From positions 17,732,001-17,796,000 of the forward strand of contig OZ024748.1 in NCBI GenBank assembly GCA_964016885.1: DNA of 64,000 nt. Direction: 5' to 3'. A program made the translations under genes and the position numbers. Source of the stretch: Eledone cirrhosa. Taxonomy: Eukaryota. Shown here in pieces: positions 6,797-64,000 of the stretch. The notes under the pieces were generated by a model. It was not told the DNA's origin and did no database searches. It worked only from the letters and a program-made list of their open reading frames with translations. How positions within the stretch are numbered: the stretch's first letter is position 1; each line of letters opens with the position of its first letter.

Positions 6797-7269
6797 CACA
6801 ATTATATATATATAATTATATATATATATTTATATAATCTTATATACGTATATGTGTGTGTGTGTCATTATTATGTTCTTTAGTTATCAGGTGACATGAG
6901 ACATAAATGTAATGTTAAGTAATTCTTCATCTTACATCAATGTTAAGTAATTCTTCATCTTACATCAATATTTACACTACAAATATTTTCGCTTATTGTT
7001 ATATTTCTATATATTTTTTATTCTATATATTTTTTATATATATACATATTAATTTCCACCATTTATTCATTGTGTGTATAGCGAGGGAAAATAGATATTA
7101 AATTATATATATGTATATATATAGCATATATGTATATACATACATATATTAATTCAAAATATTAACAAAAATAGACATTCGTGTGATCAAGTATATTTTA
7201 TTATACATATTTCAGAGGTACTCAGCTATCTTATGGTTAAGATCTTATGGTTAAGATTCAGTCATGACT

Positions 7270-8763
7270 GAATTTTAACCATCTACTAAGTCAGGGTATA
7301 TCATGCATCATCTTATTTTATCTGATGAGGACATACTGTTGAATCTTAACCATCTACTAAGTCAGGGTATATCATGCATCATCTTATTTTATCTGATGAG
7401 GACATACTGTTGAATCTTAACCATCTACTAAGTCAGGGCATGTCATGCATCATCTTATTTTATCTGATGAGGACATACTGTTGAATCTTAACCATCTACT
7501 AAGTCAGGGCATGTCATGCATCATCTTATTTTATCTGATGAGGACATACTGTTGAATCTTAACCATCTACTAAGTCAGGGTATGTCATGCATCATCTTAT
7601 TTTATCTGATGAGGACATACTGTTGAATCTTAACCATCTACTAAGTCAGGGTATATCATGCATCATCTTATTTTATCTGATGAGGACATACTGTTGAATC
7701 TTAACCATCTACTAAGTCAGGGTATATCATGCATCATCTTATTTTATCTGATGAGGACATGCTGTTGAATCTTAACCATCTACTAAGTCAGGGTATATCA
7801 TGCATCATCTTATTTTATCTGATGAGGACATACTGTTGAATCTTAACCATCTACTAAGTCAGGGTATATCATGCATCATCTTATTTTATCTGATGAGGAC
7901 ATACTGTTGAATCTTAACCATCTACTAAGTCAGGGCATGTCATGCATCATCTTATTTTATCTGATGAGGACATACTGTTGAATCTTAACCATCTACTAAG
8001 TCAGGGTATATCATGCATCATCTTATTTTATCTGATGAGGACATACTGTTGAATCTTAACCATCTACTAAGTCAGGGTATATCATGCATCATCTTATTTT
8101 ATCTGATGAGGACATACTGTTGAATCTTAACCATCTACTAAGTCAGGGTATATCATGCATCATCTTATTTTATCTGATGAGGACATACTGTTGAATCTTA
8201 ACCATCTACTAAGTCAGGGTATATCATGCATCATCTTATTTTATCTGATGAGGACATACTGTTGAATCTTAACCATCTACTAAGTCAGGGTATATCATGC
8301 ATCATCTTATTTTATCTGATGAGGACATACTGTTGAATCTTAACCATCTACTAAGTCAGGGCATGTCATGCATCATCTTATTTTATCTGATGAGGACATA
8401 CTGTTGAATCTTAACCATCTACTAAGTCAGGGTATATCATGCATCATCTTATTTTATCTGATGAGGACATACTGTTGAATCTTAACCATCTACTAAGTCA
8501 GGGTATATCATGCATCATCTTATTTTATCTGATGAGGACATACTGTTGAATCTTAACCATCTACTAAGTCAGGGTATATCATGCATCATCTTATTTTATC
8601 TGATGAGGACATACTGTTGAATCTTAACCATCTACTAAGTCAGGGTATATCATGCATCATCTTATTTTATCTGATGAGGACATACTGTTGAATCTTAACC
8701 ATCTACTAAGTCAGAGTATGTCATGCATCATCTTATTTTATCTGATGAGGACGTACTGTTGAA
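7270..8763 (+). repeat. Tandem array, 21 x 71 bp, each unit carrying the 5' half of a hammerhead
   Basis: TCTGATGAGG recurs at 7321, 7392, 7463 ... 8741 (20 intervals of 71). Variants GGGTATATC/GGGCATGTC. Confidence 0.95.
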
Positions 8764-8800
8764 GATAGCTCAGTACCTCTAAAATATGTATAATAAAATA
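8734..8800 (+). ncRNA. Minimal hammerhead with G12A change (probably inactive copy)
   Basis: TATTTTAT CTGATGA ...GTACTG/CAGTAC... AAAA TATGTA TA ATAAAATA. The inverted arm (C7213) retains GAAA. Confidence 0.65.
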
Positions 8801-8942
8801 TACTTGATCACACAAATGTCTATTTTTGTTAATATTTTGAATTAATATTAATAACTCCGGGAAACCATTTTTTGTTGAGTGCTTCCAATCTATTGTAAAA
8901 CTCATTCTTTGATTTATTCATTGAACCTTGTTTAACCTTTAA

Positions 8943-8992
<50 letters not shown>

Positions 8993-9231
8993 TCATCATC
9001 ATTTTACATCCCCTTTTCCCTGCTTGCAAGGGTGGGACATATATATATATATATATATATAAAGAATTAATATCTAGTAACATATATACATACAGATGCA
9101 TATCAATGCTAGCAAATATATAGGTTTTGTCTTAGTAACTTTGTGGTTCAATGCATGGGGTTGCAGAACAATAATATGAGAGACGTAAAATAAGAAAATT
9201 ATTATAAAATTAACTTACTTACTAAAATATC

Positions 9232-9313
9232 ACTTCCAACTAATTAGTTTCTGGAATGGAATAAATATATTTTCCGAAGAAGATACGGAGAAGCATTCCG
9301 TCGTCAGGGAAGT
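9232..9313 (-). ncRNA. Hammerhead ribozyme (copy of 10252-10333)
   Basis: Reverse complement of the 10252 motif. Confidence 0.8.
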
Positions 9314-9763
9314 CTATTCTCATCTAAGTATCCAGGCAAAGCATGGACACTGGAAACTTATTAAAAAATAATTCAGTGGATAGAAAATAGCAAAGCGTGG
9401 ACTGAATTCCTAGCCATTGAGAAAATCACTGCCTCTGCGTCGGTGGCAAATTCAAAAATAATCAATCACGTGACATCGAGGTCAATCAGTGGAAAGTGGT
9501 TGCTAATAAGACAGCGGCCTGCCTGCTACCATAGCAGCAGTCATGGCCAATATTGCTCGACAAATAATTTGGAGATAATTATAAAGAATTAATATCCAGT
9601 AACATATATACATACAGATGCATATCAATTCTAGCAAATATATAGGTTTTGTCTTAGTAACTTTGTGGTTCAATGCATGGGGTTGCAGAACAATAACATG
9701 AGAGACGTAAAATAAGAAAATTATAAAATTAACTTACTTATATATATATATATATAAAATATC

Positions 9764-9845
9764 ACTTCCAACTAATTAGTTTCTGGAATGGAATAAATAT
9801 ATTTTCCGAAGAAGATACAGAGAAGCATTCCGTCGTCAGGGAAGT
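9764..9845 (-). ncRNA. Hammerhead ribozyme (second tandem copy)
   Basis: Reverse complement of the 10252 motif, one unit away from the 9232 copy. Confidence 0.8.
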
Positions 9846-10251
9846 CTATTCTCATCTAAGTATCCAGGCAAAGCGTTGCAACCCCATGCATTGAACCACA
9901 AAGTTACTAAGACAAAACCTATATATTTGCTAGCATTGATATGCATATGTATGTATATATGTTACTAGATATTAATTCTTTATAATTATCTCCAAATTAT
10001 TTGTCGAGCAATATTGGCCATGACTGCTGCTATGGTAGCAGGCAGGCCGCTGTCTTATTAGCAAACCACTTTCCACTGATTGACCTCGATGTCACGTGAT
10101 TGATTCTTTTTGAATTTGCCACCGACGCAGAGGCAGTGATTTTCTCAATGGCTAGGAATTCAGTCCACGCTTTGCTATTTTCTATCCACTGAATTATTTT
10201 TTAATAAGTTTCCAGTGTCCACGCTTTGCCTGGATACTTAGATGAGAATAG

Positions 10252-10333
10252 ACTTCCCTGACGACGGAATGCTTCTCCGTATCTTCTTCGGAAAATATAT
10301 TTATTCCATTCCAGAAACTAATTAGTTGGAAGT
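10252..10333 (+). ncRNA. Type I hammerhead ribozyme with long loop 2
   Basis: Stem I ACTTCC/GGAAGT; CTGACGA; stem II GGAATG/CATTCC; GAAA; palindromic CTAATTAG; GTT cleavage triplet. Confidence 0.8.
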
Positions 10334-10413
10334 GATATTTTAGTAAGTAAGTTAATTTTATAATTTTCTTATTTTACGTCTCTCATATATATATATATAT
10401 ATGTAAAATATAT

Positions 10414-13917: not shown

Positions 13918-14293
13918 AAGTTAAATAAAAAGTCAAATGTTTAAAATTTAGCTTCGTTTATTACTGCTATATATATTTCAGTGACAGCCATCTTTGGCTG
14001 TGACCTCTTCAGGCAGTCTGAATTAGTGTGGTATAGACAAGTACATATGTTGTTTAGGTGTATAATTTTGTCAATACTCTGATATGCCCAGTTCCTGGTT
14101 GGGTTGTTATTTCACTGGGGAACTGGAATCATATGATTCCAGTTCCTCAGTGAAATAACAACATATGTACTTGTCTATACCACACTAATTCAGACTGCCT
14201 GAAGAGGTCACAGCCAAAGATGGCTGTCACTGAAATATATATAGCAGTAATAAACGAAGCTAAATTTTAAACATTTGACTTTTTATTTAACTT
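13918..14293. mobile_element. Fold-back element with inverted minimal HHR pair
   Basis: Arms 13918-14053 and 14158-14293, with a nested hairpin at ~14102-14162. Confidence 0.8.
14194..14248 (+). ncRNA. Minimal type I hammerhead (antisense copy at 13963-14017)
   Basis: ACTGC CTGAAGA GGTCACAGCCA-AAGA-TGGCTGTCACT GAAA TATATA TA GCAGT. Confidence 0.85.
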
Positions 14294-26483: not shown

Positions 26484-29007
26484 CCACCACTACAACAACA
26501 ACAACCACTACTACAACAACAGCCCCCACCACAACAACAAGCATCACCACTACAACGGCCACCACCACTACAACGGCCACCACCACTACAACAACAACAA
26601 CCACCACCACTACAACCACCACCACTACAATCATAGGCCTTAAATAGGGTGGTCATGCCAGGAATGTCTTTCATCATAGATCTTCTTGATTAAGTTTGGT
26701 CTGTGAGATAACCAGTTATACATACCATTTGAGGGAGTTTCTATGTGGTCTTTCATCCTGCTAGAAATATCAGTGAAATCTTCCAACAAATTACTCTCAA
26801 TCATTTTAACATTTAACATTCGGTAACGATTTAGAAAATATTTTTAAAATAAGCTTCTTAATTCAAATGTTTACAGTATCGCTATTAGTGGACAGATTGT
26901 TGTGAAAATTTACAGTATTAAAGTAAACACTTTATTTGTTAATGAAATGCAGTCATAGTGTTGTTTCATACTTTACAAATAATGCAGTTTCATGTGATAC
27001 GCGGCATAAACCCTTTAGCATTTAAACCGGCCATATCTGGCCTAAATTCTCTCACCTCTTTCTGTTCAGACTGGCTTTAAGCAGCTGCTCATACTGATGT
27101 CAAGGTATTGTTCTCAAAATAAGTAACATCAAAATCTCATAGACTCGATAATATGTGAGGTAATTATGTGACGTAAAACACGTTACCATGAAAATAAAAT
27201 AGTATATATAGAGTAATGTAAATGCTAAAGGGTCAAGAGTTATGAATAGACAAAAAGACACTTTATATAACATAATCCTAAACATACGCCTCAACCCTTT
27301 AGCACTTAAACCAGTTGAATCTGGCCAGAATTCTCTCACCTCATTCTGTTCGAACTGGCCATAAGTAGCAACTCATATTTATGTTAAGGTATTGTTCTCA
27401 AAATAAATAATATCAAAATCTAATATATTCAATATTATGTGAGATAATTATGTGAAATAAAGTGTTTACTGTGAAAATACAATAGTAAATACAGATTAAG
27501 TTTGGTCTGTGAGATAACGAGTTACAAGGCTCTATATGTTTGTTTGATCTGCCTCCAAATTACACACCTGAGCCCTTTTGATACCAACCCAGCTCTGATA
27601 CCAAAACCAGCTCTGGTTCTATGAAACACAGCCATCTATCTGGGTTCCTGCTTAAAATCTTCCACCATAGTCTTCTACAAAACCATGTGTTAAATTGCAG
27701 TGATGTATTTGTTTTGCAAGGTTTTTGATGGGAAATCGTCTGTTGAAACAGATATTGGGGAGGGTCATATTGTCCAGGAGGGTCATATTGTCCAGGAGGG
27801 TCATATTGTCCTAATATTGCCAAAAAGTAGTAAAACACACTCACTATTTGGTTTGGTTTTCGCTTCAGTATATTTTTATATTTTTATAGATAATTTAGCT
27901 GGCAATCAATGTTTATTAACCAAGAGTTAAAAAATATAAATATAAATATAATTTCTTTCGTCACACATATCTGTGACATCTTCAGTGATATCATTGTGTT
28001 TCATCCTGTTGTATTCCTGTAACATTTTTTTCTTTTTTTTTTTTTTTCTCTCTTTTATTCTTTTTTTTTTTCTTTTTGTTCTCTTACCAATAAAGTAATA
28101 ATATTAAATCTGGCTCTGGTTCTATGACACAAAACCACCCATTTTCAAGGGTTCCTATTTATATTAATATCTTACACCATAGTTTCTGCTATATAAGAAT
28201 TATTTCTGATTTAGGTAGAAGGCCAACAATTTTTGGAGGAAACAGGAAAGTTGATTTACCCTTTAGCATTTACATTCGTCTGTATTTACTATTGTATTTT
28301 TGTGGTAAAGGCTTTATCTTACATAATTAGCTCATGTAACATTTATATTACTCTATATTTACTATTGTATTTTTGTGGTAAAGGCTTTATCTTACATAAT
28401 TAGCTCATGTAACATTTACATTCGTCTGTATTTACTATTGTATTTTTGTGGTAAAGGCTTTATCTTACATAATTAGCTCACATAATATCGAATCTATGAG
28501 ATTTTGATATTATTTATTTTGAGAACAATTTCTTAACATCAGTATGAATGGACCATTTGAACAAAAAGAGGTGAGAGAATTCTGGCCAGATACAGCTGGT
28601 TAAAATACTAAAGGGTTAAATCAACCCCATAATGATGAAATGCAAAGCTAACCTTGGCAGGATTTGAACTCTGAACATAAAAAGATATAACAAATGCCAC
28701 AAAACATGTTGTCCTACACTCTACTGATATAGCCAATCTGCCACCCTTTTCTGCTATATAATTAATAAAATAATCAATAGTTTTAGTAAATCCTTCAAAA
28801 TCACAGACTAAACACTTCATCACAAGGCTATATGTCTTCATGTTAGACATAACAGAGCGTAATTGGTCAAAAGTTTGATTTCCAGCTCAGAGTTGTGTCA
28901 CTGAACATGACATTTTATTTTACATTGTTCCAGTACTTTCAGATGACAAAAATAAATTGTAGCTGTGATTCAAACCTCCCTGAGTATTAAGACATGGTGG
29001 GTAGACA

Positions 29008-29670
29008 TGTCTGTTGAATACTCAGCCACTTACAAAATAATACAAAATGGACTATACTTGTAATTCAAAGGACCAGTCTTGTCACATACACTGTCACACT
29101 GAATCTCCCTGAGAATAACATTAAAGGTACCCATGTCTGTGGATTACTCAGCCACTTACAAAATAATACAAGATGGACTGTACCTGTAATACAAAGGACC
29201 AGTCTTGTCATATACTGTATCACACTGACTCTCCCTGAGAATAACATTAAAGGTACCCATATCTGTGGAATACTCAAACACTTATACAATAATATAAGAT
29301 GGACTGTACTGTAATACAAAGGACCAGTCATGTCATATGCTGTGTCATGCTGAATCTCCCTGAGAATTACAATACAGGTACGCATATCTGTGAAATGTTC
29401 AGCCACTTACACAATAATGATTTCTACTTTAGGCACAAGGCCAGCAATTTTTTGGTTGGAAGGGAAAGTCGATTAAATCAACCCCAGTGCATTACTGGTA
29501 CTTCATATTATCGACCCCGTAAGGATGAAAGACAAAGCTAACCTCAGCAGAATTTGAACTCAGAACGTAAAGGGCAATAACTCTATGCTGCAAAGCATGG
29601 CGTCCAACCCTCTACTGATACTGCCAATCCACTGCCCTACTTACACAATGATATAAGGTGGACTACAACC
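29008..29670. repeat. ~125-bp tandem repeat (3+ copies) interrupted by a SINE
   Basis: CTCAGCCACTTACAAAATAAT-like units recur at 29021, 29147, ~29272 and ~29398. Confidence 0.85.
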
Positions 29671-31844: not shown

Positions 31845-32272
31845 ATTGTTATACTTTGGGAGGGTCATGTTGCCAATAAGAAACACACGCACCAGTTGCT
31901 TTCACTTCAATTTATTATATATTTATAAATTTATAAATTTACAAATCTACAAATTTATAAATTTCTGGTTGGTTGGTTGGTTCCACAACCAGATAGTTGT
32001 TTATATATAGTCATAGTCCTTTCGTCACACATTCTGTGACCTCTTCAGTGACTGGGGATTCCTTTCTTTGTTTCTGTGCCTTTCCTTTCTTCTGTCCTAC
32101 GCCAATTTTGAAACAAAAACAACTATCTGGTTGTGGAACCAACCAACCAACCAGAAATTTATAAATTTGTAGATTTGTAAATTTATAAATTTATAAATAT
32201 ATAATAAATTGAAGTGAAAGCAACTGGTGCGTGTGTTTCTTATTGGCAACATGACCCTCCCAAAGTATAACA
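31845..32272. mobile_element. Fold-back element with HHR at 32009-32053 (-)
   Basis: Arms 31845-32002 and ~32115-32272. AGTCA CTGAAGA G GTCACA..TGTGAC GAAA GGAC TA TGACT. Confidence 0.75.
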
Positions 32273-33718: not shown

Positions 33719-33723
<5 letters not shown>

Positions 33724-34025
33724 GGAGGTGAGTTTTATTGTAGTACAATAAAGCAATGCAGATATCGGATAAGAAGCACTCTACAGTTTGTAGGACTGGA
33801 GTATGCATAATATAAGATCAAAAGATGGTTAAAGGAGTTCCATATATTTTATTATGCGCATTTCAAAAACAAACATCATCATGCAATAATATTTGTGTTT
33901 TCATCAGATAAAACAGGAGAACATGATATGAAGGCTAAAAAACACTTGTGGATAGTGCAGTTTTAAATCAACATATCCATAATAATATATGGAACTCCTT
34001 TAACCATCTTTTGATCTTATATTAT
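33719..34025 (-). mobile_element. PLE 3' terminus with HHR (33847-33913) and a short inverted arm
   Basis: Near-identical to the reverse complement of 59630-59890; (TA)n flanks. Confidence 0.85.
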
Positions 34026-34701: not shown

Positions 34702-35345
34702 TTATGTTAGGTACTGTGTGCTGAGTGCAAATCTATTATCTGTTTGCGGGTTGTGTCTAAATATGAGCAAGGCTTCCTTAATTCTTAAATTTCCCACATT
34801 TCTATCACTGGCTTTAATCGTAACGGTAATATGTTTGGTGATGTTTCTACATTTGTCAATGTATTATTTAAATGAGGATGTGTGTGTTTTGAGGCGTTCT
34901 TTAATGCAAGTGTGGAGTGCTTGAGTCGTGCAACCAATGTAGAACTCCTTACATTTGCTGCATTCAATCCAGTATACCATATGTGTCTGCTGGCATATAC
35001 CTGTATTGCAGATAGGGCAGTTTGTCAGCGAGCATTGATTATTTTTGTCTCTTGATTGCTTTTTAGACAGATATCCACGCAGTGAGGGGCCGGAGTGTGC
35101 TAACTGTATGTCCAGTCCTTCTTTGTGGATAGCTCTGCGGATAGCTGTTGTTATGCTTCTGCTGAAATTTGATAATTTCATGAAGCAGGTGTTAGAGGAG
35201 GTTTATGTCTGTGGCACCTTCGGTTCTTAAGTTGATTCATTGTGGATGTTGGGTATCTGTTCGTCTTCAGTACATCCATAAAGTGTGCAGTGTAAGTGAT
35301 CTGATCTTCTGTCTTGCTACATTTATTGACCATGTGATTTGCATC
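34702..35345 (-). pseudogene. Penelope-like element ORF remnant (RT thumb, Cys-rich linker, GIY-YIG endonuclease)
   Basis: ...LKTNRYP..., CSLTNCPIC, VYWIECSKCKEFYIGCT, LRIKEALLIFRHNP. Frameshift near 35180 and an in-frame TAA at 34864. Degenerate HHR downstream at 34477-34515. Confidence 0.85.
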
Positions 35346-44863: not shown

Positions 44864-46012
44864 AATTGTTTCTACTTTTGGCACAAGGCCAGAAATTACC
44901 CAGTGCATTACTGGTACTTTATTTTATCGACCCCGTAAGGATGAAAGGCAAAGTTAACCTCGGTGGGATTTGAACTCAAAATGGCATGGGTCGTAACTCT
45001 ATGCGTCAAAGCATGGCGTCCGACTCTCTGCCTATACTGCCAATCCACCGCCTTTAATAATTGTTTTTACTTTAGGCACAAGGCCAGCAATTACCCAGTA
45101 CATTACAGGTACTTTATTTTATTGACCTCGTAAGGATGAAAGGCAAAGTTAACTAATAATAATTAAAATAATTGTTTCTACTTTAGGCACAAGGCCAGCA
45201 ATTACCCAGTGCATTACTGGTACTTTATTTTATCGACCCCGTAAGGATGAAAGGCAAAGTCAACCTCGGTGGGATTTGAACTCAGACCATAAAGGGACGT
45301 AACTCTGCTGCAAATCACGGTGTCCGAACCTCCACTGATACTGCCAATCCACCACCCTATAATAATAATAATGGTTTCTTATATAGGCACAAGGCCAGCA
45401 ATTTGAGGTGAAGGGGAAACTCGATTAAATCAACCCCAGTGCATTACTGGTACTTTATTTTATCAACCCTGTAAGGATGAAAGACAAAATTCACCTCAGC
45501 ACTATTTGAACTCAGAATGTAAAGTGCCATAACTCTATGGCCCTAAGCATGTCCGACACTCTACCGATTCCGCCAATAATAATAATGGTTTCTGATTTAG
45601 GCACAAGGCCAGCAATTTGGTGAGGAGGGAAAAGTCGATTAAATCAACGCCAGTGCGTTACTGGTACTTTATTTTATCAACCCCCATAAAGATGGATGAA
45701 AGGCAAAGTTAACTTTGGTGGGATTTGAAATCAGACTGTAAAGGGCCACAACTCTATGCTGCAAAACATGGTGTCTGACGCTCTACCGATTACTGCCAAT
45801 CCACTGCCCTAATATAATGATTTCTGATTTAGGCTAGGCACAAGGCCAGCAATTTGGGGGGGAGGGGAAGTCGATTAAATGGAACCCAGTGCGTTACTGG
45901 TACTTTATTTTATCAATCCCTGTAAGGATGGCAGGCAAAACTCACGATGGCAAAACTCACGTAAAGGGCCATAGTTCTATGCCACGAAGTATGGTGTCTG
46001 ACATTCTACTGA
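44864..46012 (-). mobile_element. Stack of six head-to-tail tRNA-derived SINEs
   Basis: GGCACAAGGCCAG tail motif at ~44881, 45075, 45186, 45386, 45600 and 45837, with (AAT)n spacers. Confidence 0.9.
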
Positions 46013-46224
46013 TTATTCCCTGACCACTTCCCTCTCTAGAGGTGAAGCTAAGTAAAGTAGTGTGACTTGCTCAAGGATACACACATATATATAAATGTAG
46101 AGTGGCATGTAATGGTTGCAACTATTGAAATTTTAAAATATTTAATCCAATCACACTAAGTTGGATGAGTTGAATTGTTATATACACACAGACACATGTA
46201 TATATACATATATATATATATGTA

Positions 46225-47464: not shown

Positions 47465-47564
47465 GAGGTTATATTTAATTTGTTGGGATTCAACAAGCTT
47501 AAAAATGTTTATAACTGATTTAAAGCACTCAACAGTTAGTGGAGTAAATACACAATATATTAAT

Positions 47565-47915
47565 AAATGGAAACTATATTTATAAAACCATAATTATTTT
47601 ATTATACATATTTCAAGGGCAACCAAGGCAAATTATGGTGCGCTTTCATCAGATAAAATACAGATTTGTATTATAAATAAATATTGACATAACCCGGAAA
47701 AAAGACAACCTTAACTAGCTAAGAAGCTCCAACCGTTAAGGTTGTCTTTTTTTCCGGGTATGTCAATATATATTTATAAAACAAATCTGTATTTTATCTG
47801 ATGAAAGCGCACCATAATTTGCCTTGGTTGCCCTTGAAATATGTATAATAAAATAAATATGGTTTTATAAATATAGTTTCCATTTATAAATATGGTTTTA
47901 TAAATATAGTTTCCA
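47565..47915. mobile_element. Fold-back with inverted HHR pair (47595-47660 -, 47790-47855 +)
   Basis: TATTTTAT CTGATGA AAGCGCACCA...TGGTTGCCCTT GAAA TATGTA TA ATAAAATA. Confidence 0.85.
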
Positions 47916-50210: not shown

Positions 50211-50212
<2 letters not shown>

Positions 50213-51080
50213 CCTTAAAATTAACCTGGCTAAGACTAAAGTTCTAGTTTGTAGGAAAGAAAATAAGGCGGCGGTCCCATCGGGGAAATGGCCATGCTCA
50301 GTGTGTAGGAAAGGCGTAGGTAGAAACTCCATTTTATGTCCCAAATGCAAAGTATGGGTGCATAAAAGATGTAGTGGGATCACAGGTAAGCTAACTAAGA
50401 ACATAGATTTTACATGTGGCTGGTGCTCTGGTGCAATAAGTAGCAGCAAGTGCCCACAAAATACTAGCTCCTTCAACTGCGCAGAGGGTTCTATAGAAAT
50501 AGTGGACAGCTTCCGTTATCTGGGTGACAAAATCAGCAGTGGGGGAGGGTGCTCTGAAAGTACAGTAGCTAGAGTCAGAACTGGATGGAAAAAGTTCAGA
50601 GAGCTTATACCACTATTAGCCGCTAGAGGGTTCTCCCTAAAAATGAAAGGCAGGTTATACGATGCCTGCATACGAACAGCAATGCTGCATGGCAGTGAGA
50701 CCTGGGCATTGTGTGCAGAGGATATACGCAGACTAGAGAGGAACGAAGCTTGCATGCTCCGCTGGATGTGCAATAGTAATATACGTGAACGGCAAAGCAT
50801 AAACGAACTAAGGAAAAAATTAGAAATAAGAGGGATCAGATGTTGTTTACTCGAGAGAAGGCTACGTTGGTACGGTCACGTGATGCGCATGAAAGACGAC
50901 AGCTGTATAACAAAGTGCAGGGCAATAAAGATAGACGGTAGCCACGGAGTAGGCAGACCCAGAAAAACATGGGACGAGCTGATAAATTCCGACCTCACAC
51001 GCTTACACCTCTCCAAGACAATGTCACTGGACCGAGACCTTTGGCGGTACTCAGTAATAGAGAAGACCCGCCTTACCTAA
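50211..51080 (+). CDS. 5'-truncated RTE-clade LINE ORF (C-terminal RT/thumb with inserted PHD-like zinc finger)
   Basis: GLKINLAKTKV, CSVC..C..C..WVHKRC..C..C, FRYLG, LHGSETW, RRLRWYGHVMR, GRPRKTW; no stop codon over 870 nt. Confidence 0.92.
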
Positions 51081-56725: not shown

Positions 56726-56732
<7 letters not shown>

Positions 56733-59700
56733 AGATCAAAAGATGGTTAAAGGAGTTCCATGTATTTTATTATGCGCATTTCAAAAACAAACATCATCAT
56801 GCAATAATATTTGTGTTTTCATCAGATAAAACAGGAGAACATGATATGAAGGCTAAAAAACACTTGTGGATAGTGCAGTTTTAAATCAACATATGAAAAG
56901 TGGTTTTAGATTGATGTGTGATATTGGGAAAAAAATATTTTATTTAGAGAGGGGGGGGGGGGGGTTGGAAAGGATGAAAAGGGAAGGAGATGAGAGGGAG
57001 AGATGGGTGATAGAGAGAAAGAGATAGTTTTTATAACTGAGAGGAGATATAGTTTTTACATAGAGAGGTTGAAAACCGTTGGAAGATACTGTATAAATTA
57101 AAAATTTTGAAAATTAGCGAAGGGAGGATAAGTGCGAGGAAAAAATATTTTATTTAGGGAGGGGGGGGAGGATGAAAAAAAAGGGGGAGGAGATGAGAGC
57201 GAAGGTGGAGAGGGAGAGATGGGTGATAGAGAGAAAGAGATAATTTTTATAACTGAGAAAAAGATATATTGTTTTAACATAGAGAGGTTGGGAACCGTTG
57301 GAAGATAATGTATAAATTAAAGGAATTTGAAAATTAACGAAGGGAAATTATGTATGAAGATAGAGAGAAAAAAATAATAATTGTGGATGAATATTCTAAC
57401 GTCAAAAAAAGAAATGTATGTATTGTGGCAATTTCAAAATTAACGAAGAGAAAAATTATTAAGGTTTGTGTGTAGAAGGATTTGAGAAAAATAATGTGAA
57501 GTTAAAGTTTGTATATTGGTTGAATTGATAATATATGCGAATAAAGAGTTAATATGTATTAATAATGAGTTCGTTGATGGGGAGAAAAAAATAATAAATT
57601 AAGGATGAAATTGAGATTAAAAAGATTTATGATAGAGAGAAAAAATAATAATGATTGCGGATGAATATTCTAACGTCAAAAAACAACAAATGTATATGTT
57701 ATGATTTTACAAGGTGAAGATAGAATGAGGGTAATGAGTAAATAAGTATTATAGAGTGTATAATGCCCTTTAAAGTAAAGTAGATGGGTATATTTTAAAG
57801 AGGTGTATGTTTATGTGCCTTTGAGAAAAGATTCTAAATTGATAAAGAATTGAATATTAACTGTATACTTTGTGAAAAGTTCTATGGAATTTATGCAGGC
57901 AGATAGAAAACAAATCTGTGCGTCTATTTATTATAGAATCTAGGTTAGAGATAATGGTAAATTTTTCATTTAGGCAGAGATTACAGATTTTAGATAGAGA
58001 GCTGTTCAAGTATGAGGATGCAGAAGAAATCTTCTTCCAAAAGATGGTATATTTAATGTTTTTTGTCTTTTAAGGACCATATGAGTTCTGAGAGAGCAGT
58101 GTTAGTTCTTTTAAGTTTGTATTTGAAAGATGAATGATGATTATAGAGACGAGCTTTAAAAGAGGTGGAAGTGGAGCCAAAATAGGTGACGGAATTGGTG
58201 CTAGTTATAATTTTACATTCATAAATTAAGTTTTTATCGAGACAATGGTTGTTGAGAGGACATTTATTTTTAATGCGGCAGTTGCAATTAGAGAGATTAT
58301 TAATGAGTGATCTAGTGTTATCTATAGAAGGAATTGGATTGGAGAAGTTATTTGCGATAGGAATAATAGTTTCTTGATTTAGAGTTGGATTATGAACATT
58401 TAGCGAAGTTGTGTTTGACGTTGTATTTGGGTTTACAGAACTCATATGGTCCTTAAAAGACAAAAACATTAAATATACCATCTTTTGGAAGAAGATTTCT
58501 TCTGCATCCTCATACTTGAACAGCTCTCTATCTAAAATCTGTAATCTCTGCCTAAATGAAAAATTTACCATTATCTCTAACCTAGATTCTATAATAAATA
58601 GACGCACAGATTTGTTTTCTATCTGCCTGCATAAATTCCATAGAACTTTTCACAAAGTATACAGTTAATATTCAATTCTTTATCAATTTAGAATCTTTTC
58701 TCAAAGGCACATATACATACACCTCTTTAAAATATACCCATCTACCTTACTTTAAAGGGCATTATACACTCTATAATACTTATTTACTCATTACCCTCAT
58801 TCTATCTTCACCTTGTAAAATCATAACATATACATTTGTTGTTTTTTGACGTTAGAATATTCATCCGCAATCATTATTATTTTTTCTCTCTATCATAAAT
58901 CTTTTTAATCTCAATTTCATCCTTAATTTATTATTTTTTTCTCCCCATCAACGAACTCATTATTAATACATATTAACTCTTTATTCGCATATATTATCAA
59001 TTCAACCAATATACAAACTTTAACTTCACATTATTTTTCTCAAATCCTTCTACACACAAACCTTAATAATTTTTCTCTTCGTTAATTTTGAAATTGCCAC
59101 AATACATACATTTCTTTTTATGACGTTAGAATATTCATCCACAATTATTATTTTTTTCTCTCTATCTTCATACATAATTTCCCTTCGTTAATTTTCAAAT
59201 TCCTTTAATTTATACATTATCTTCCAACGGTTCCCAACCTCTCTATGTTAAAACAATATATCTTTTTCTCAGTTATAAAAACTATCTCTTTCTCTCTATC
59301 ACCCATCTCTCCCTCTCCACCTTCACTCTCATCTCCTCCCCCTTTTTTTTCATCCTTTCCACCCCCCCTCCCTAAATAAAATATTTTTTCCTCGCACATA
59401 TCCTCCCTTCGTTAATTTTCAAAATTTTTAATTTATACAGTATCTTCCAACGGTTTTCAACCTCTCTATGTAAAAACTATATCTCCTCTCAGTTATAAAA
59501 ACTATCTCTTTCTCTCTATCACCCATCTCTCCCTCTCATCTCCTTCCCTTTTCATCCTTTCCAACCCCCCCCCCCTCTCTAAATAAAATATTTTTTTCCC
59601 AATATCACACATCAATCTAAAACCACTTTTCATATGTTGATTTAAAACTGCACTATCCACAAGTGTTTTTTAGCCTTCATATCATGTTCTCCTGTTTTAT

Positions 59701-59890
59701 CTGATGAAAACACAAATATTATTGCATGATGATGTTTGTTTTTGAAATGCGCATAATAAAATACATGGAACTCCTTTAACCATCTTTTGATCTTATATTA
59801 TGCATACTCCAGTCCTACAAACTGTAGAGTGCTTCTTATCCGATATCTGCATTGCTTTATTGTACTACAATAAAACTCACCTCCTACATA
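56726..59890. mobile_element. Inverted PLE insertion forming a 3.1-kb palindrome; HHRs at 56765-56831 (-) and 59695-59761 (+)
   Basis: Arms 56726-58090 and 58436-59800 are near-identical around a 345-bp spacer. TTTTAT CTGATGA...GAAA TGCGCA TA ATAAAA. Confidence 0.92.
57857..58435 (-). pseudogene. PLE GIY-YIG endonuclease domain (Naiad-like signature)
   Basis: CNCRIKNKCPLNNHCL, LIYEC..TYFGST, FKARLYNH, LSELIWSLK, CNLCLNEK, INRRTDLFSICLH. A +1 frameshift near 58060 is absent from the right arm. Confidence 0.85.
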
Positions 59891-60254: not shown

Positions 60255-60812
60255 TCCTAATGCCAACCATCTTACAGAGTGTACTGGATGCATTATATAA
60301 TGGTACTAGCACTAATTCTTTACAGAGTGTACTAGGTGTATTTTATCATGGAACTTTGCAGTAAAGCCTTGGTGTATATTTTATCGTGACACCAACACTA
60401 CCAGTTTACAGAGTGTACTGGGTATATTTTACCAGGATACTAGCACTACCACTTTATAGAATGTATTGGGTGTATATATCATGACACCAACACTACCACT
60501 TTACAGAGTGTACTGGGTGTATTTTATCATGACACCAACACTACCATTTTACAGAGTATACTGGGTGTATTTTATCATGACACTAGCACAATCATCTTAC
60601 AGTGTATCCTGGGAGTATTTTATCATGTCACCAACACTACCACTTTATAGTGGGTACTAGGTGTATTTTATCATGACACCAGCACTACTACTTTATAGTG
60701 GGTACTGGGTGTATTTTATCATGACGCAAGCACTACTACTTTACAATGAGTACTAGGTGTATTTTATCATGACACCAGCACTACTACTTTACAATGTAAA
60801 CTGGGTGTATTC
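60255..60812. repeat. 48-bp minisatellite (~11 copies)
   Basis: ATGACAC recurs at 60481, 60529, 60577 and onward. Confidence 0.9.
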
Positions 60813-61390
60813 TATGGTGCTCAACAGTAGCTACATATTATTAAAATTAAGGTGATGGAGATTATCCATAAAATATAGATATGGGTTTCTTGATTTTTTG
60901 AAAATCATATAAGGGCTCCAAAGCAAAATAAGTTTTGGAAATAGTGATATGAGGAACCCCATATATTGATATTGCAGCATATGATAGCAGAATATTTCAA
61001 CTGAACAAATCCTATATAATCATCGAAGAAGACCTTAATGGTGACATCTTTCTATGGAGTGTGCTATACTATAATTAGAACAAGAATTTGAACAGGTGGA
61101 AGATTTTATTTTGAATAATAATTTATGAATATTTAATAGTATTTCTTCTCTTATGTTATCTATACAATGGAGTATAGGAATGTATATACCTGCATTGTCT
61201 TCTTCACACTAACAGCAATTGTTATTGGTCAGTTCACGATGAACTCTGTGGAAGTGAATTGGTTAATTCCTTATATATTCCATGTTGAACATTTTAAAGG
61301 TGCAAAAATGCTTCAAGGTGGAAAATACAGTTCATGAAAATTTAACACCAGAAAATATTTCCACAAAAGTTCCACCCTGAAAATAATTTT

Positions 61391-62230: not shown

Positions 62231-63261
62231 CCAGGGAGGATCATAGGGGGTGGAGGTGCAGAGTCGTCCTCAAACACACCTTCCAGCTGGTCCTGTCAGA
62301 AGCAACTCTCTCCATTAATCCCACTGGATCCCCAAGACCAGCCAAGCTCATAGATGTTATCCAGCCATCTTACTTGGCAGTGTGTGTGTGTGTGTGGGGG
62401 GGGGGGTCTACTCCTGTATTTTCTCTTGGTTGGTTTTTGCCTGTAAAATCTATTCAGCCATTCTTTCTTCAGTTATTCTAACCACATGCCCTGAAAATTC
62501 CTCCTTTGAAAACTTGACCCCATCTCTGAAAAGAACATTAGGTTGACTTTGCCTTTCATCCTTACGGGGTCGATAAAATAAAGTACCAGTAATACAGTGG
62601 GTAATTGCTGGCCTTGTGCCTAAAGTAGAAACAATTATTACTGATATTCCTTTTCTTGACTTAGCTATGTTTGCTATAAAACACATTTATCTAAAGACCT
62701 TCCATCATCATTTTAATGTAAGAGTTTTAACCACAAACTTAATATTAAGAAATTTAGTCATATTACTAAATCTATGATTTTCAAAATTATTTGAAAATCA
62801 TAGGCTGTCATTCATTAGAAATAGGGTAACGAAAGGATTATATATATATATATATAAAAGAAAATGTTCGCTCTACATGGTTGAATACAATAAATGTAAT
62901 CTGAGTTTTTCGAATATTAATAATTGTTTCTACTTTAGGCACAAGGCCAGCAATTACCCAGTACATTACTGGTACTTTATTTTATCGACCCCGTAAGGAT
63001 GAAAGGCAAAGTCAACCTCGGCGGGATTTGAACTCAGATCGTAAAGGGACGTAACTATGCTGGAAAGCATGGCGTCCGACTCTCTACCGATACTGCCAAT
63101 CCACCGCCCTCGAATATTAATAATTGTTTCTACTTTAGGCACAAGGCCAGCAATTACCCAGAACATTCGATTTGTATTCAAACAAGCCTCAATGTTATAG
63201 CTATGTCAGTAGAATGAACCCTTCATTCTTGCTCTTATGTTGTATATATATATATATATAT

Positions 63262-63571
63262 ATAATATAAGATCGAAAGATGGTTAAAAGAGTTCCAAGT
63301 ATTTTATTATGCGCATTTCAAAAACAAATATCATCCTGGGATGATATCTGCATTTTCATCAGATAAAATAGGGATACATGATATGAAGCTTAAAAAACAC
63401 TTGTGAATAGTGAAGTTTTAAATCAACATATGAAATGAGCATAATAAAATACTTGGAACTCTTTTAACCATCTTTCGATCTTATATTATTTATACTCCAG
63501 TCCTACAAACTGTAGAGTGCTACTTATCCGATATTTGCTTTATTGTGCTACAATAAAACTCACCTCCTACA
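63262..63571. mobile_element. PLE 3' terminus fold-back with HHR at 63302-63368 (-)
   Basis: Diverged copy of the 33719/59630 family; (TA)n flanks. Confidence 0.85.
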
Positions 63572-64000
63572 TATATATATATATATATATGAGAATAAAT
63601 AAACCTTTGACATTCGACAATATCTGTGAATAGGAGTATTGACTGATGACACCACATAAAGAGACATTCAGTGGAGAAGAAGGAAGCTGATATCTCACTT
63701 TCTCTCTCTCTCATACACACACACTCTCTCTCTCTATCTATCTAATCTCTCTTTCTTCCTGTCTCTCTTTCTCTCTCTCCCTCTCTCTCTCTCTTTCTCA
63801 CTCCCTCCTTCCCTCCTCTCTCTTTCTTTCTCCATCTATCAATCTAATCTATCTTTCTCTCTCTCTTTCTCTCGCTCTCCCTCAACTCCTCTCCTTCGTT
63901 CCCTCACCCCCTCTCTCTCCCTCACCCACTGTCTCTCTCTCACTCCCTCACTCTCTCACTCTCTTTCTGGCTCCCTCACCCCCTCTCTTTACCCCTCCTC

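Follow-up and report, generated by a model that had tools for sequence, protein, structure and literature searches.

Introduction

Hammerhead ribozymes described for Penelope-like elements (PLEs) are of the dimer type and have a self-complementary stem III (PMC4209133), and PLE insertions typically contain inverted 5′-truncated copies and a one-sided tail (PMC8557442). For a purified PLE, tails were found to arise at internal start sites of the reverse transcriptase (RT) (PMC11167929). One PLE clade, Hydra, is marked by CxCx5C, CxxC and CxH motifs and targets (TA)n (PMC8557442). PLEs of Octopus vulgaris are abundant and recently active, and the accessible part of the report on them makes no mention of hammerheads (PMC13282606). 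The terminal repeats of PLEs are also thought to be the source of retrozymes, for which local growth by unequal crossover has been proposed (bioRxiv 10.64898/2026.07.22.740005). Transposon-derived minisatellites, finally, are common, with about 7276 in the human genome (PMC9659126).

Here we examine a 64,000-nucleotide stretch of the genome of Eledone cirrhosa (contig OZ024748.1, positions 17,732,001 to 17,796,000; hereafter the window), in which an inverted-repeat element encloses 21 tandem units, each containing half of a hammerhead. The PLE terminal repeat (pLTR) remnants described in PMC4209133 and PMC8557442 resemble this element in having a type I hammerhead with a long stem II and a tiny self-complementary stem III, motifs or half-motifs on opposite strands, an inverted 5′-truncated copy, a one-sided tail, a (TA)n-rich target and a high copy number. 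Unlike them, the array element has no open reading frame (ORF), carries a 21-unit internal array and has an intact ribozyme in neither arm, and its tail is about 94 bp (83–88 bp in neighbour elements) compared to the 30–40 bp described for PLEs. Non-LTR retrozymes and hammerhead satellites (newt satellite 2, SM-alpha and pDo500; PMC7229834) share with the array a head-to-tail arrangement and a likely PLE terminal origin. The retrozyme unit, however, holds a complete ribozyme and is cut into monomers and circles, whereas the array units have no GAAA, stem III or cleavage site, which makes self-processing impossible. The Schistosoma W-element satellites also include tandem repeats of incomplete or core-mutated hammerheads, but those are large multi-locus families with active members (PMC8490949), whereas the array occupies one locus and has the truncation built into its unit. 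As in other transposon-derived minisatellites, an internal piece of a transposable element (TE) has been amplified locally from a microhomology seed and displays linked variants; the array differs from those described in PMC9659126 in that its source is half a ribozyme and its host copy is palindromic. Among the articles listed in a literature search, none describes a tandem array made up of half-hammerhead units. We class the array as a transposon-derived minisatellite and no new kind of element.

Results

A tandem array of half-ribozyme units

The array spans 7269–8763 on the forward strand, with a period of 71 bp, 21.1 copies, 98% matches and 0% indels according to TRF, in which it has the top score among the matches listed (150 of 193). 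Every unit is exactly 71 bp long and consists of 45 nt of upstream sequence followed by the 8-nt 5′ strand of stem I (unit positions 46–53), CTGATGA (54–60), the 10-nt 5′ strand of stem II (61–70) and the start of loop II. Within 7146–8942, CTGATGA occurs 21 times on the forward strand (7322 to 8742), once per unit, and not at all on the reverse strand. GAAA is found inside the element only at 7213–7210 on the reverse strand and at 8861 in the tail. Retrozymes are defined as head-to-tail tandem repeats in which two or more neighbouring units each contain a whole type I hammerhead. The array has the head-to-tail arrangement but, for all its 21 CTGATGA motifs, no GAAA, and so falls outside this definition.

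The two ends of the array carry the same four nucleotides, TGAA (7269–7272 and 8760–8763), and the match extends neither way; a match of at least 4 nt is expected at about 2–3% of random breakpoint pairs within the element. The junction (8763 → 8693) lies in loop II, and the unit starts 4 nt from the axis of the inversion. The original prediction, made from the sequence, of 21 units of 71 bp joined at a TGAA microhomology thus describes the window accurately; it was also right about the stem I 5′ strand and CTGATGA in each unit, but took for the start of stem II what is the whole of its 10-nt 5′ strand. The label “satellite” given to the array overstates what is a single minisatellite locus of 1.5 kb, with no second array copy in the 64-kb window among the matches listed.

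Reads were compared for four of the 12 listed runs (X1, X4, X5 and X10) over 8689–8940. The array junction is absent among the joints listed for these four, where contigs can show presence but not absence and X10 is a RAD-seq run; given the contig caveat and the reduced representation of X10, the array is neither confirmed nor refuted by them. At most 0.49 of the sampled element words, less than half, occur in any one run, and there are no RNA runs among the listed runs that share element words. The absence of the junction from the listing fits an expansion specific to the sequenced individual, with a small chance of an artefact. An artefactual copy number would be in keeping with the unlisted junction, with the scaffolded state of the window (200 N) and with the difficulty that palindromic PLE insertions are described to cause for assemblers (PMC8557442). 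It is at odds with the uniform 71-bp units without indels and with the variants, which are linked substitutions in a nested arrangement of classes, two of them in agreement with ancestral states of the family. Errors of a consensus are not expected to take the form of linked, nested substitutions, and we regard an assembly origin of the copy number as quite improbable.

Anatomy of the element

The element is organized around a central palindrome (7247–7282) with 18-bp arms that contain one mismatch. Its axis, 7264|7265, is the head-to-head meeting point of two 5′-truncated copies, both of which read outward. The right copy leads through the array into the right inverted arm (8762–8848, forward strand). 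The left copy runs for 18 nt, skips 59 nt, repeats the junction once and continues from loop II into the left inverted arm (7146–7232, reverse strand). The repeated junction is a 14-bp duplication on the reverse strand (7233–7246; TRF 7228–7257, 14 bp × 2.1), which joins the unit start (equivalent to 8694–8702) to loop II (equivalent to 8762–8766). The left arm thereby comprises the end of loop II, the 3′ strand of stem II with one C>G change at 7223, GAAA, stem III, the cleavage triplet, the 3′ strand of stem I and downstream pLTR-like sequence; CTGATGA is absent, and the 5′ half of the ribozyme is wholly missing as a result of the 59-nt skip and the 14-bp duplication. The left arm has three further joins of these two sites, which brings to four the number that link the 5′ end of the copy to loop II at this locus.

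The arms differ at three of 87 sites, one of which is the first position of GAAA (G at 7213 on the reverse strand, A at 8781). The sole full-length type I hammerhead layout of the element, 8734–8800 on the forward strand, is composed of the last unit and the right arm and has the G12 to A change at 8781. It had been anticipated that only the last unit would enter the 3′ half, there with AAAA, and that the inverted arm would retain GAAA, and both are the case.

The element had been taken to end at 8849. Contigs of other family copies bridge this position, however (X1 record 3, 8792–8889; X5 record 13, 8775–8901), and the loose ends of the family behind 8936 enter (TA)n in three of four runs (X1, X5 and X10), which places the end near 8942 and leaves the element with a tail of about 94 bp on one side only (8849–8942, forward strand), followed by (TA)n-like sequence. 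The ten nucleotides of the left target flank (7136–7145) are identical to 8943–8952 and form a weak candidate target-site duplication that may be due to chance, as the (TACA)/(TA)n tract around them is of low complexity; the best match of a scripted flank comparison is 14 nt long and overlaps the arm. Joints at 8689 were considered as a fold-back hotspot and not accepted, being situated on the edge of the compared stretch.

The parent family in sequencing runs

The sequence around the last unit belongs to a dispersed high-copy repeat family. Over 8689–8940 it is represented by 2507 contigs in X1, 88 in X5, one in X4, a run labelled as a different organism, and 2646 reads in X10. The parent copies in these public reads have G at 8781 (871 of 886 X10 reads; 452822 of 452904 of the summed contig depth in X1), so the GAAA to AAAA change is almost absent from other copies. 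Only 32 of the 2646 X10 reads are at least 99% identical to this copy. TGAA at the unit start is the trait of a subfamily: most loose ends of the family before 8691 read otherwise, and one X5 contig has the upstream TGAC. Unit position 21 is A in all 21 units and mostly T in the family (94% of the X1 depth, 404 of 630 X10 reads), which points to a single founder. Because the unit corresponds to an inner stretch of a TE family with dispersed copies, and all units go back to one founder, the array qualifies as a TE-derived minisatellite. The data support its derivation from one half of a type I hammerhead within a retroelement remnant that has inverted repeats.

The family also contains a second go-back joint, 8795 → 8717 with two letters in between, at depths of 103 (X1) and 29 (X5). 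Its product would be a repeat of about 81 bp with the whole hammerhead core and only 3 nt of the 3′ strand of stem I, possibly a retrozyme-like derivative of the family elsewhere in the genome.

Affinity to Penelope-like elements

This copy contains no ORF for RT and a GIY-YIG endonuclease, and an endonuclease remnant is present only in a neighbour family. The window contains no ORF of the array family, whose status is deduced from shared anatomy: a hammerhead in the terminal repeat (with the GAAA layout in X4 record 9 and X10 reads), an inverted 5′-truncated copy with a one-sided tail and, as in the Hydra clade, insertion into (TA)n, apparent from the loose ends in three of four runs and from the flanks. 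By this analogy, the family is likely a PLE.

In a descriptor scan, the stem I of the array family recurs in six further motifs, which are spread over four other window elements, all of them with inverted repeats. The five window motifs compared share one stem II plan (three pairs, a pyrimidine-pyrimidine mismatch and more pairs) with differing sequences, and the stem III segments are self-complementary in all four motifs tested. The element at 56726–59889 is a palindromic PLE remnant with 1370-bp arms that are 98.8% alike, an 88-bp one-sided tail and hammerheads at 56825 (reverse strand) and 59701 (forward strand); short copies of its family are found at about 33721–34025 and 63257–63572. It shares stem I and the core with the array family and is flanked by (TA)n. 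Its GIY-YIG-like remnant has a Pfam E-value of 0.0079, below the cut-off, Atlas features of 0.95–0.96 and membership of a cluster in which 27% of members have GIY-YIG, and it carries the CxCx5C, CxxC and CxH motifs. This element would accordingly be a Hydra-clade PLE remnant by analogy to the described clade, and the PLE and Hydra membership of the array family is suggested by likeness to it. The tails of the two elements give no alignment above shuffles (49 of 500 as good).

The unit had also been assigned to the family of the ribozyme at 47790. Stems I and III and the core of the two are indeed alike (0 of 500 shuffles as good), but the relationship does not extend to stem II or to the downstream flank, where 374 and 370 of 500 shuffles, respectively, score equally, and upstream the two have just an 8-nt match in common (19 of 500). 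On sequence comparison, the 47790 element belongs to a cousin family, related yet separate, and is not the parent.

Several other features of the window were recorded. Short palindromic elements with hammerhead motifs are located at 47557–47893 (47652, reverse; 47798, forward), 13918–14293 (14012, reverse; 14199, forward) and about 31900–32220 (32048, reverse), the first with a 33-bp × 2.2 duplication in its arm. The stretch adjoining the array element, 9053–10386, contains nested inverted repeats of 310, 188, 122 and 113 bp (97–99%) and three CTGACGA motifs (9307 and 9839, reverse; 10258, forward) that fit the type I descriptor with a 6-bp stem I and a longer stem III. A second GIY-YIG-like ORF remnant at 34864–35202 (reverse strand; Pfam E-value 0.02, below the cut-off) has a different cysteine pattern and likely represents another PLE clade. 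A 289-aa open frame at 50211–51080 (forward strand) with a PHD-finger match (E 7.6e-6) probably represents the end of a LINE ORF. A SINE-like repeat of about 230 bp, which may resemble octopus SINEs, is present in clusters of diverged copies at 44870–46040 and 62540–63170. Pattern scans of metagenomes yielded 0 loci.

Growth of the array

T6, A27 and G67 are each confined to a single unit (1, 21 and 7, respectively), and A65 is present in units 1–20, with G65 in unit 21 only. A32 is found in 15 of the 21 units, and C29 in units 3, 4, 10 and 16, always together with G32 (GGGCATGTC, C29+G32; Fisher p 0.0025), just as the original prediction had reported for linked variants at scattered positions. 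The units therefore fall into three nested haplotypes, A32/A65, G32/A65 and C29/G32/A65. A family contig, X4 record 9 (8698–8810), departs from the last unit at just three sites, 8709, 8715 and 8781, which makes T29, G32 and G65 ancestral and C29, A32 and A65 derived, as read directly from this one contig of depth 2.3; the best 40 of 93 variant rows include no majority-level difference at the sites of positions 29, 32 and 65. Variation is lower in the interior than in the arms, with one private change in 1349 bp compared to three in 2 × 87 bp (p 0.005, or a conservative p 0.037 with all four interior variants counted), a contrast in age that presumes arms identical at insertion. The six-unit spacing of C29 units, which would be a sign of block duplication, is not significant (p 0.39).

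Five derived changes, those at 8715, 8753, 8781 and 8814 and the one at unit position 32, read as G>A in the sense of the ribozyme. Deaminase editing was considered for them and not accepted, their number being small and two of them being at CpG.

The alternative that all units were produced during insertion, by a PLE RT that jumped back to loop II about 20 times or by rolling-circle copying, draws on the position of the junction in a single-stranded loop with a 4-nt match that has a chance of about 2–3%, on the unit start being just 4 nt off the inversion axis and on the three additional joins of these two sites in the left arm. The unit start and loop II pair with a probability of up to 0.27 in a short fold, but of about 0.001 in the full copy, where a stable structure is not supported. 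A single template, moreover, would have produced identical units with scattered private errors and not three interspersed nested haplotypes; the same change in four non-adjacent units has a probability of about 1e-7 if the errors are independent, and A65 is in 20 units yet not in the terminal one. Jumping among different family transcripts would be expected to leave far greater divergence, considering how few X10 reads (32 of 2646) are at least 99% alike, and writing in one insertion also conflicts with the greater uniformity of the interior. We consider it improbable. The nested classes and the uniform interior argue for repeated unequal exchange or slippage and not for one-pass reverse transcription or a one-unit circle. 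Of the routes that the original prediction had offered, later unequal exchange is thus favoured, and RT jumping is plausible for the first duplication only: the junction site and the extra left-arm joins suit template switching, and the founding duplication alone may be RT-made.

A mobile or multi-locus satellite, in which the half-ribozyme array expanded elsewhere and was then carried here, or expanded at many loci, has precedents in tandem families seeded by PLE terminal sequences in other animals (bioRxiv 10.64898/2026.07.22.740005), and the other go-back junction of the family, 8795 → 8717, is found in two samples. Such a satellite would be expected to show a well-supported joint in the deeply covered X1, where none is among the joints listed. 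No second copy is among the matches listed for the 64-kb window, and the arms of the element are more diverged than the array interior. This origin, too, we hold to be doubtful. Minisatellites without CTGANGA are found in the window at 60377–60815 (48 bp × 9.2), 29006–29418 (126 bp × 3.3) and 28267–28480 (73 bp × 2.9). Since motif-free arrays are common here, the ribozyme is unnecessary for expansion.

We therefore think it probable that the array is a half-ribozyme minisatellite in an inverted-repeat, likely PLE, copy and that it grew at the DNA level after one founding duplication; it is predicted to be catalytically dead. In the model that we propose, the end of a PLE transcript with a type I hammerhead would have been reverse-transcribed into a (TA)n-rich site, leaving two 5′-truncated copies, one tailed and one tailless, joined head to head at 7264|7265. 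The joins between the 5′ end and loop II that strip the left copy of its ribozyme 5′ half, and the duplication of a 71-bp piece of the right copy via TGAA, may have been caused by RT template switching at insertion or by replication slippage in an unstable palindrome. The short array would then have gained point mutations and expanded over several rounds, in which each new unit combined the 5′ portion of a unit downstream with the 3′ portion of one upstream. This pattern of inheritance would confine T6 to unit 1 and the ancestral G65 to unit 21. Exchanges before or after position 32 would have generated the two main classes, C29 arising later on one of them. The present end point is an element in which the one full layout has G12A and an intact ribozyme is predicted on neither strand.

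State of the ribozyme

The terminal copy (8734–8800) has CUGANGA, an 8-bp stem I and a closed stem II, and lacks G12 of GAAA (A at 8781). A descriptor scan of 7146–8942 found no complete hammerhead on either strand; the left copy has no CTGATGA and the right copy no G12, so neither strand encodes an intact one. Focused Rfam scans gave no hammerhead match up to E 10, either here or at the intact 47790 motif, and a scan of the whole window gave just miRNA- and snoRNA-type chance matches among 150 of 317 rows. With Rfam silent at both loci, the identification as a ribozyme relies on descriptor and base pairing, and the Rfam hammerhead models appear insensitive to this variant. The G12A change is described to slow the hammerhead about 10^6-fold (PMC2553840), and the array and its terminal copy are predicted to be catalytically dead.

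A functional array is conceivable if its 21 CUGAUGA enzyme strands were to pair via stems I and II with the GAAA halves of the family and cleave them in trans. Two-piece hammerheads joined through stems I and II are an established format, and each unit has exactly the strand that such a ribozyme requires. In folding calculations of the two-strand complexes, computed without stem III, the half in the terminal unit forms a hammerhead-type complex at −9.2 kcal/mol. In 20 of the 21 units, however, A65 costs a stem II pair and the complex falls to −5.9 kcal/mol, which an alternative structure (−10.0 kcal/mol) outcompetes, and the 5′ half of the target itself competes in cis (−7.5 kcal/mol). Stem III, in addition, requires a dimer, signs of conservation are absent, and PLE hammerheads are described as weak in vitro (PMC4209133) or protein-dependent (PMC11167929). 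Trans-cleavage by array units is thus unlikely on modelling grounds, and we attach next to no credence to an array that works in this way.

Discussion

The array makes the growth of a minisatellite within a transposon remnant readable, as the order of events is recorded in six point variants. A more far-reaching reading, which we put forward tentatively and judge rather unlikely, is that the array is a missed retrozyme birth. The PLE RT would switch template at the hammerhead region, and the landing site would decide the outcome: landing in loop II would give a dead half-ribozyme seed, as at this locus, and landing past the cleavage site would give a repeat of the whole core, as in the 8795 → 8717 joint. 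If this reading were true, the family would give a direct view of the route from PLE terminal repeats to non-LTR retrozymes. Should the tandem junctions of the family be found to cluster at the ribozyme genome-wide, they would provide a testable mechanism for the proposed origin of animal retrozymes from Penelope terminal repeats.
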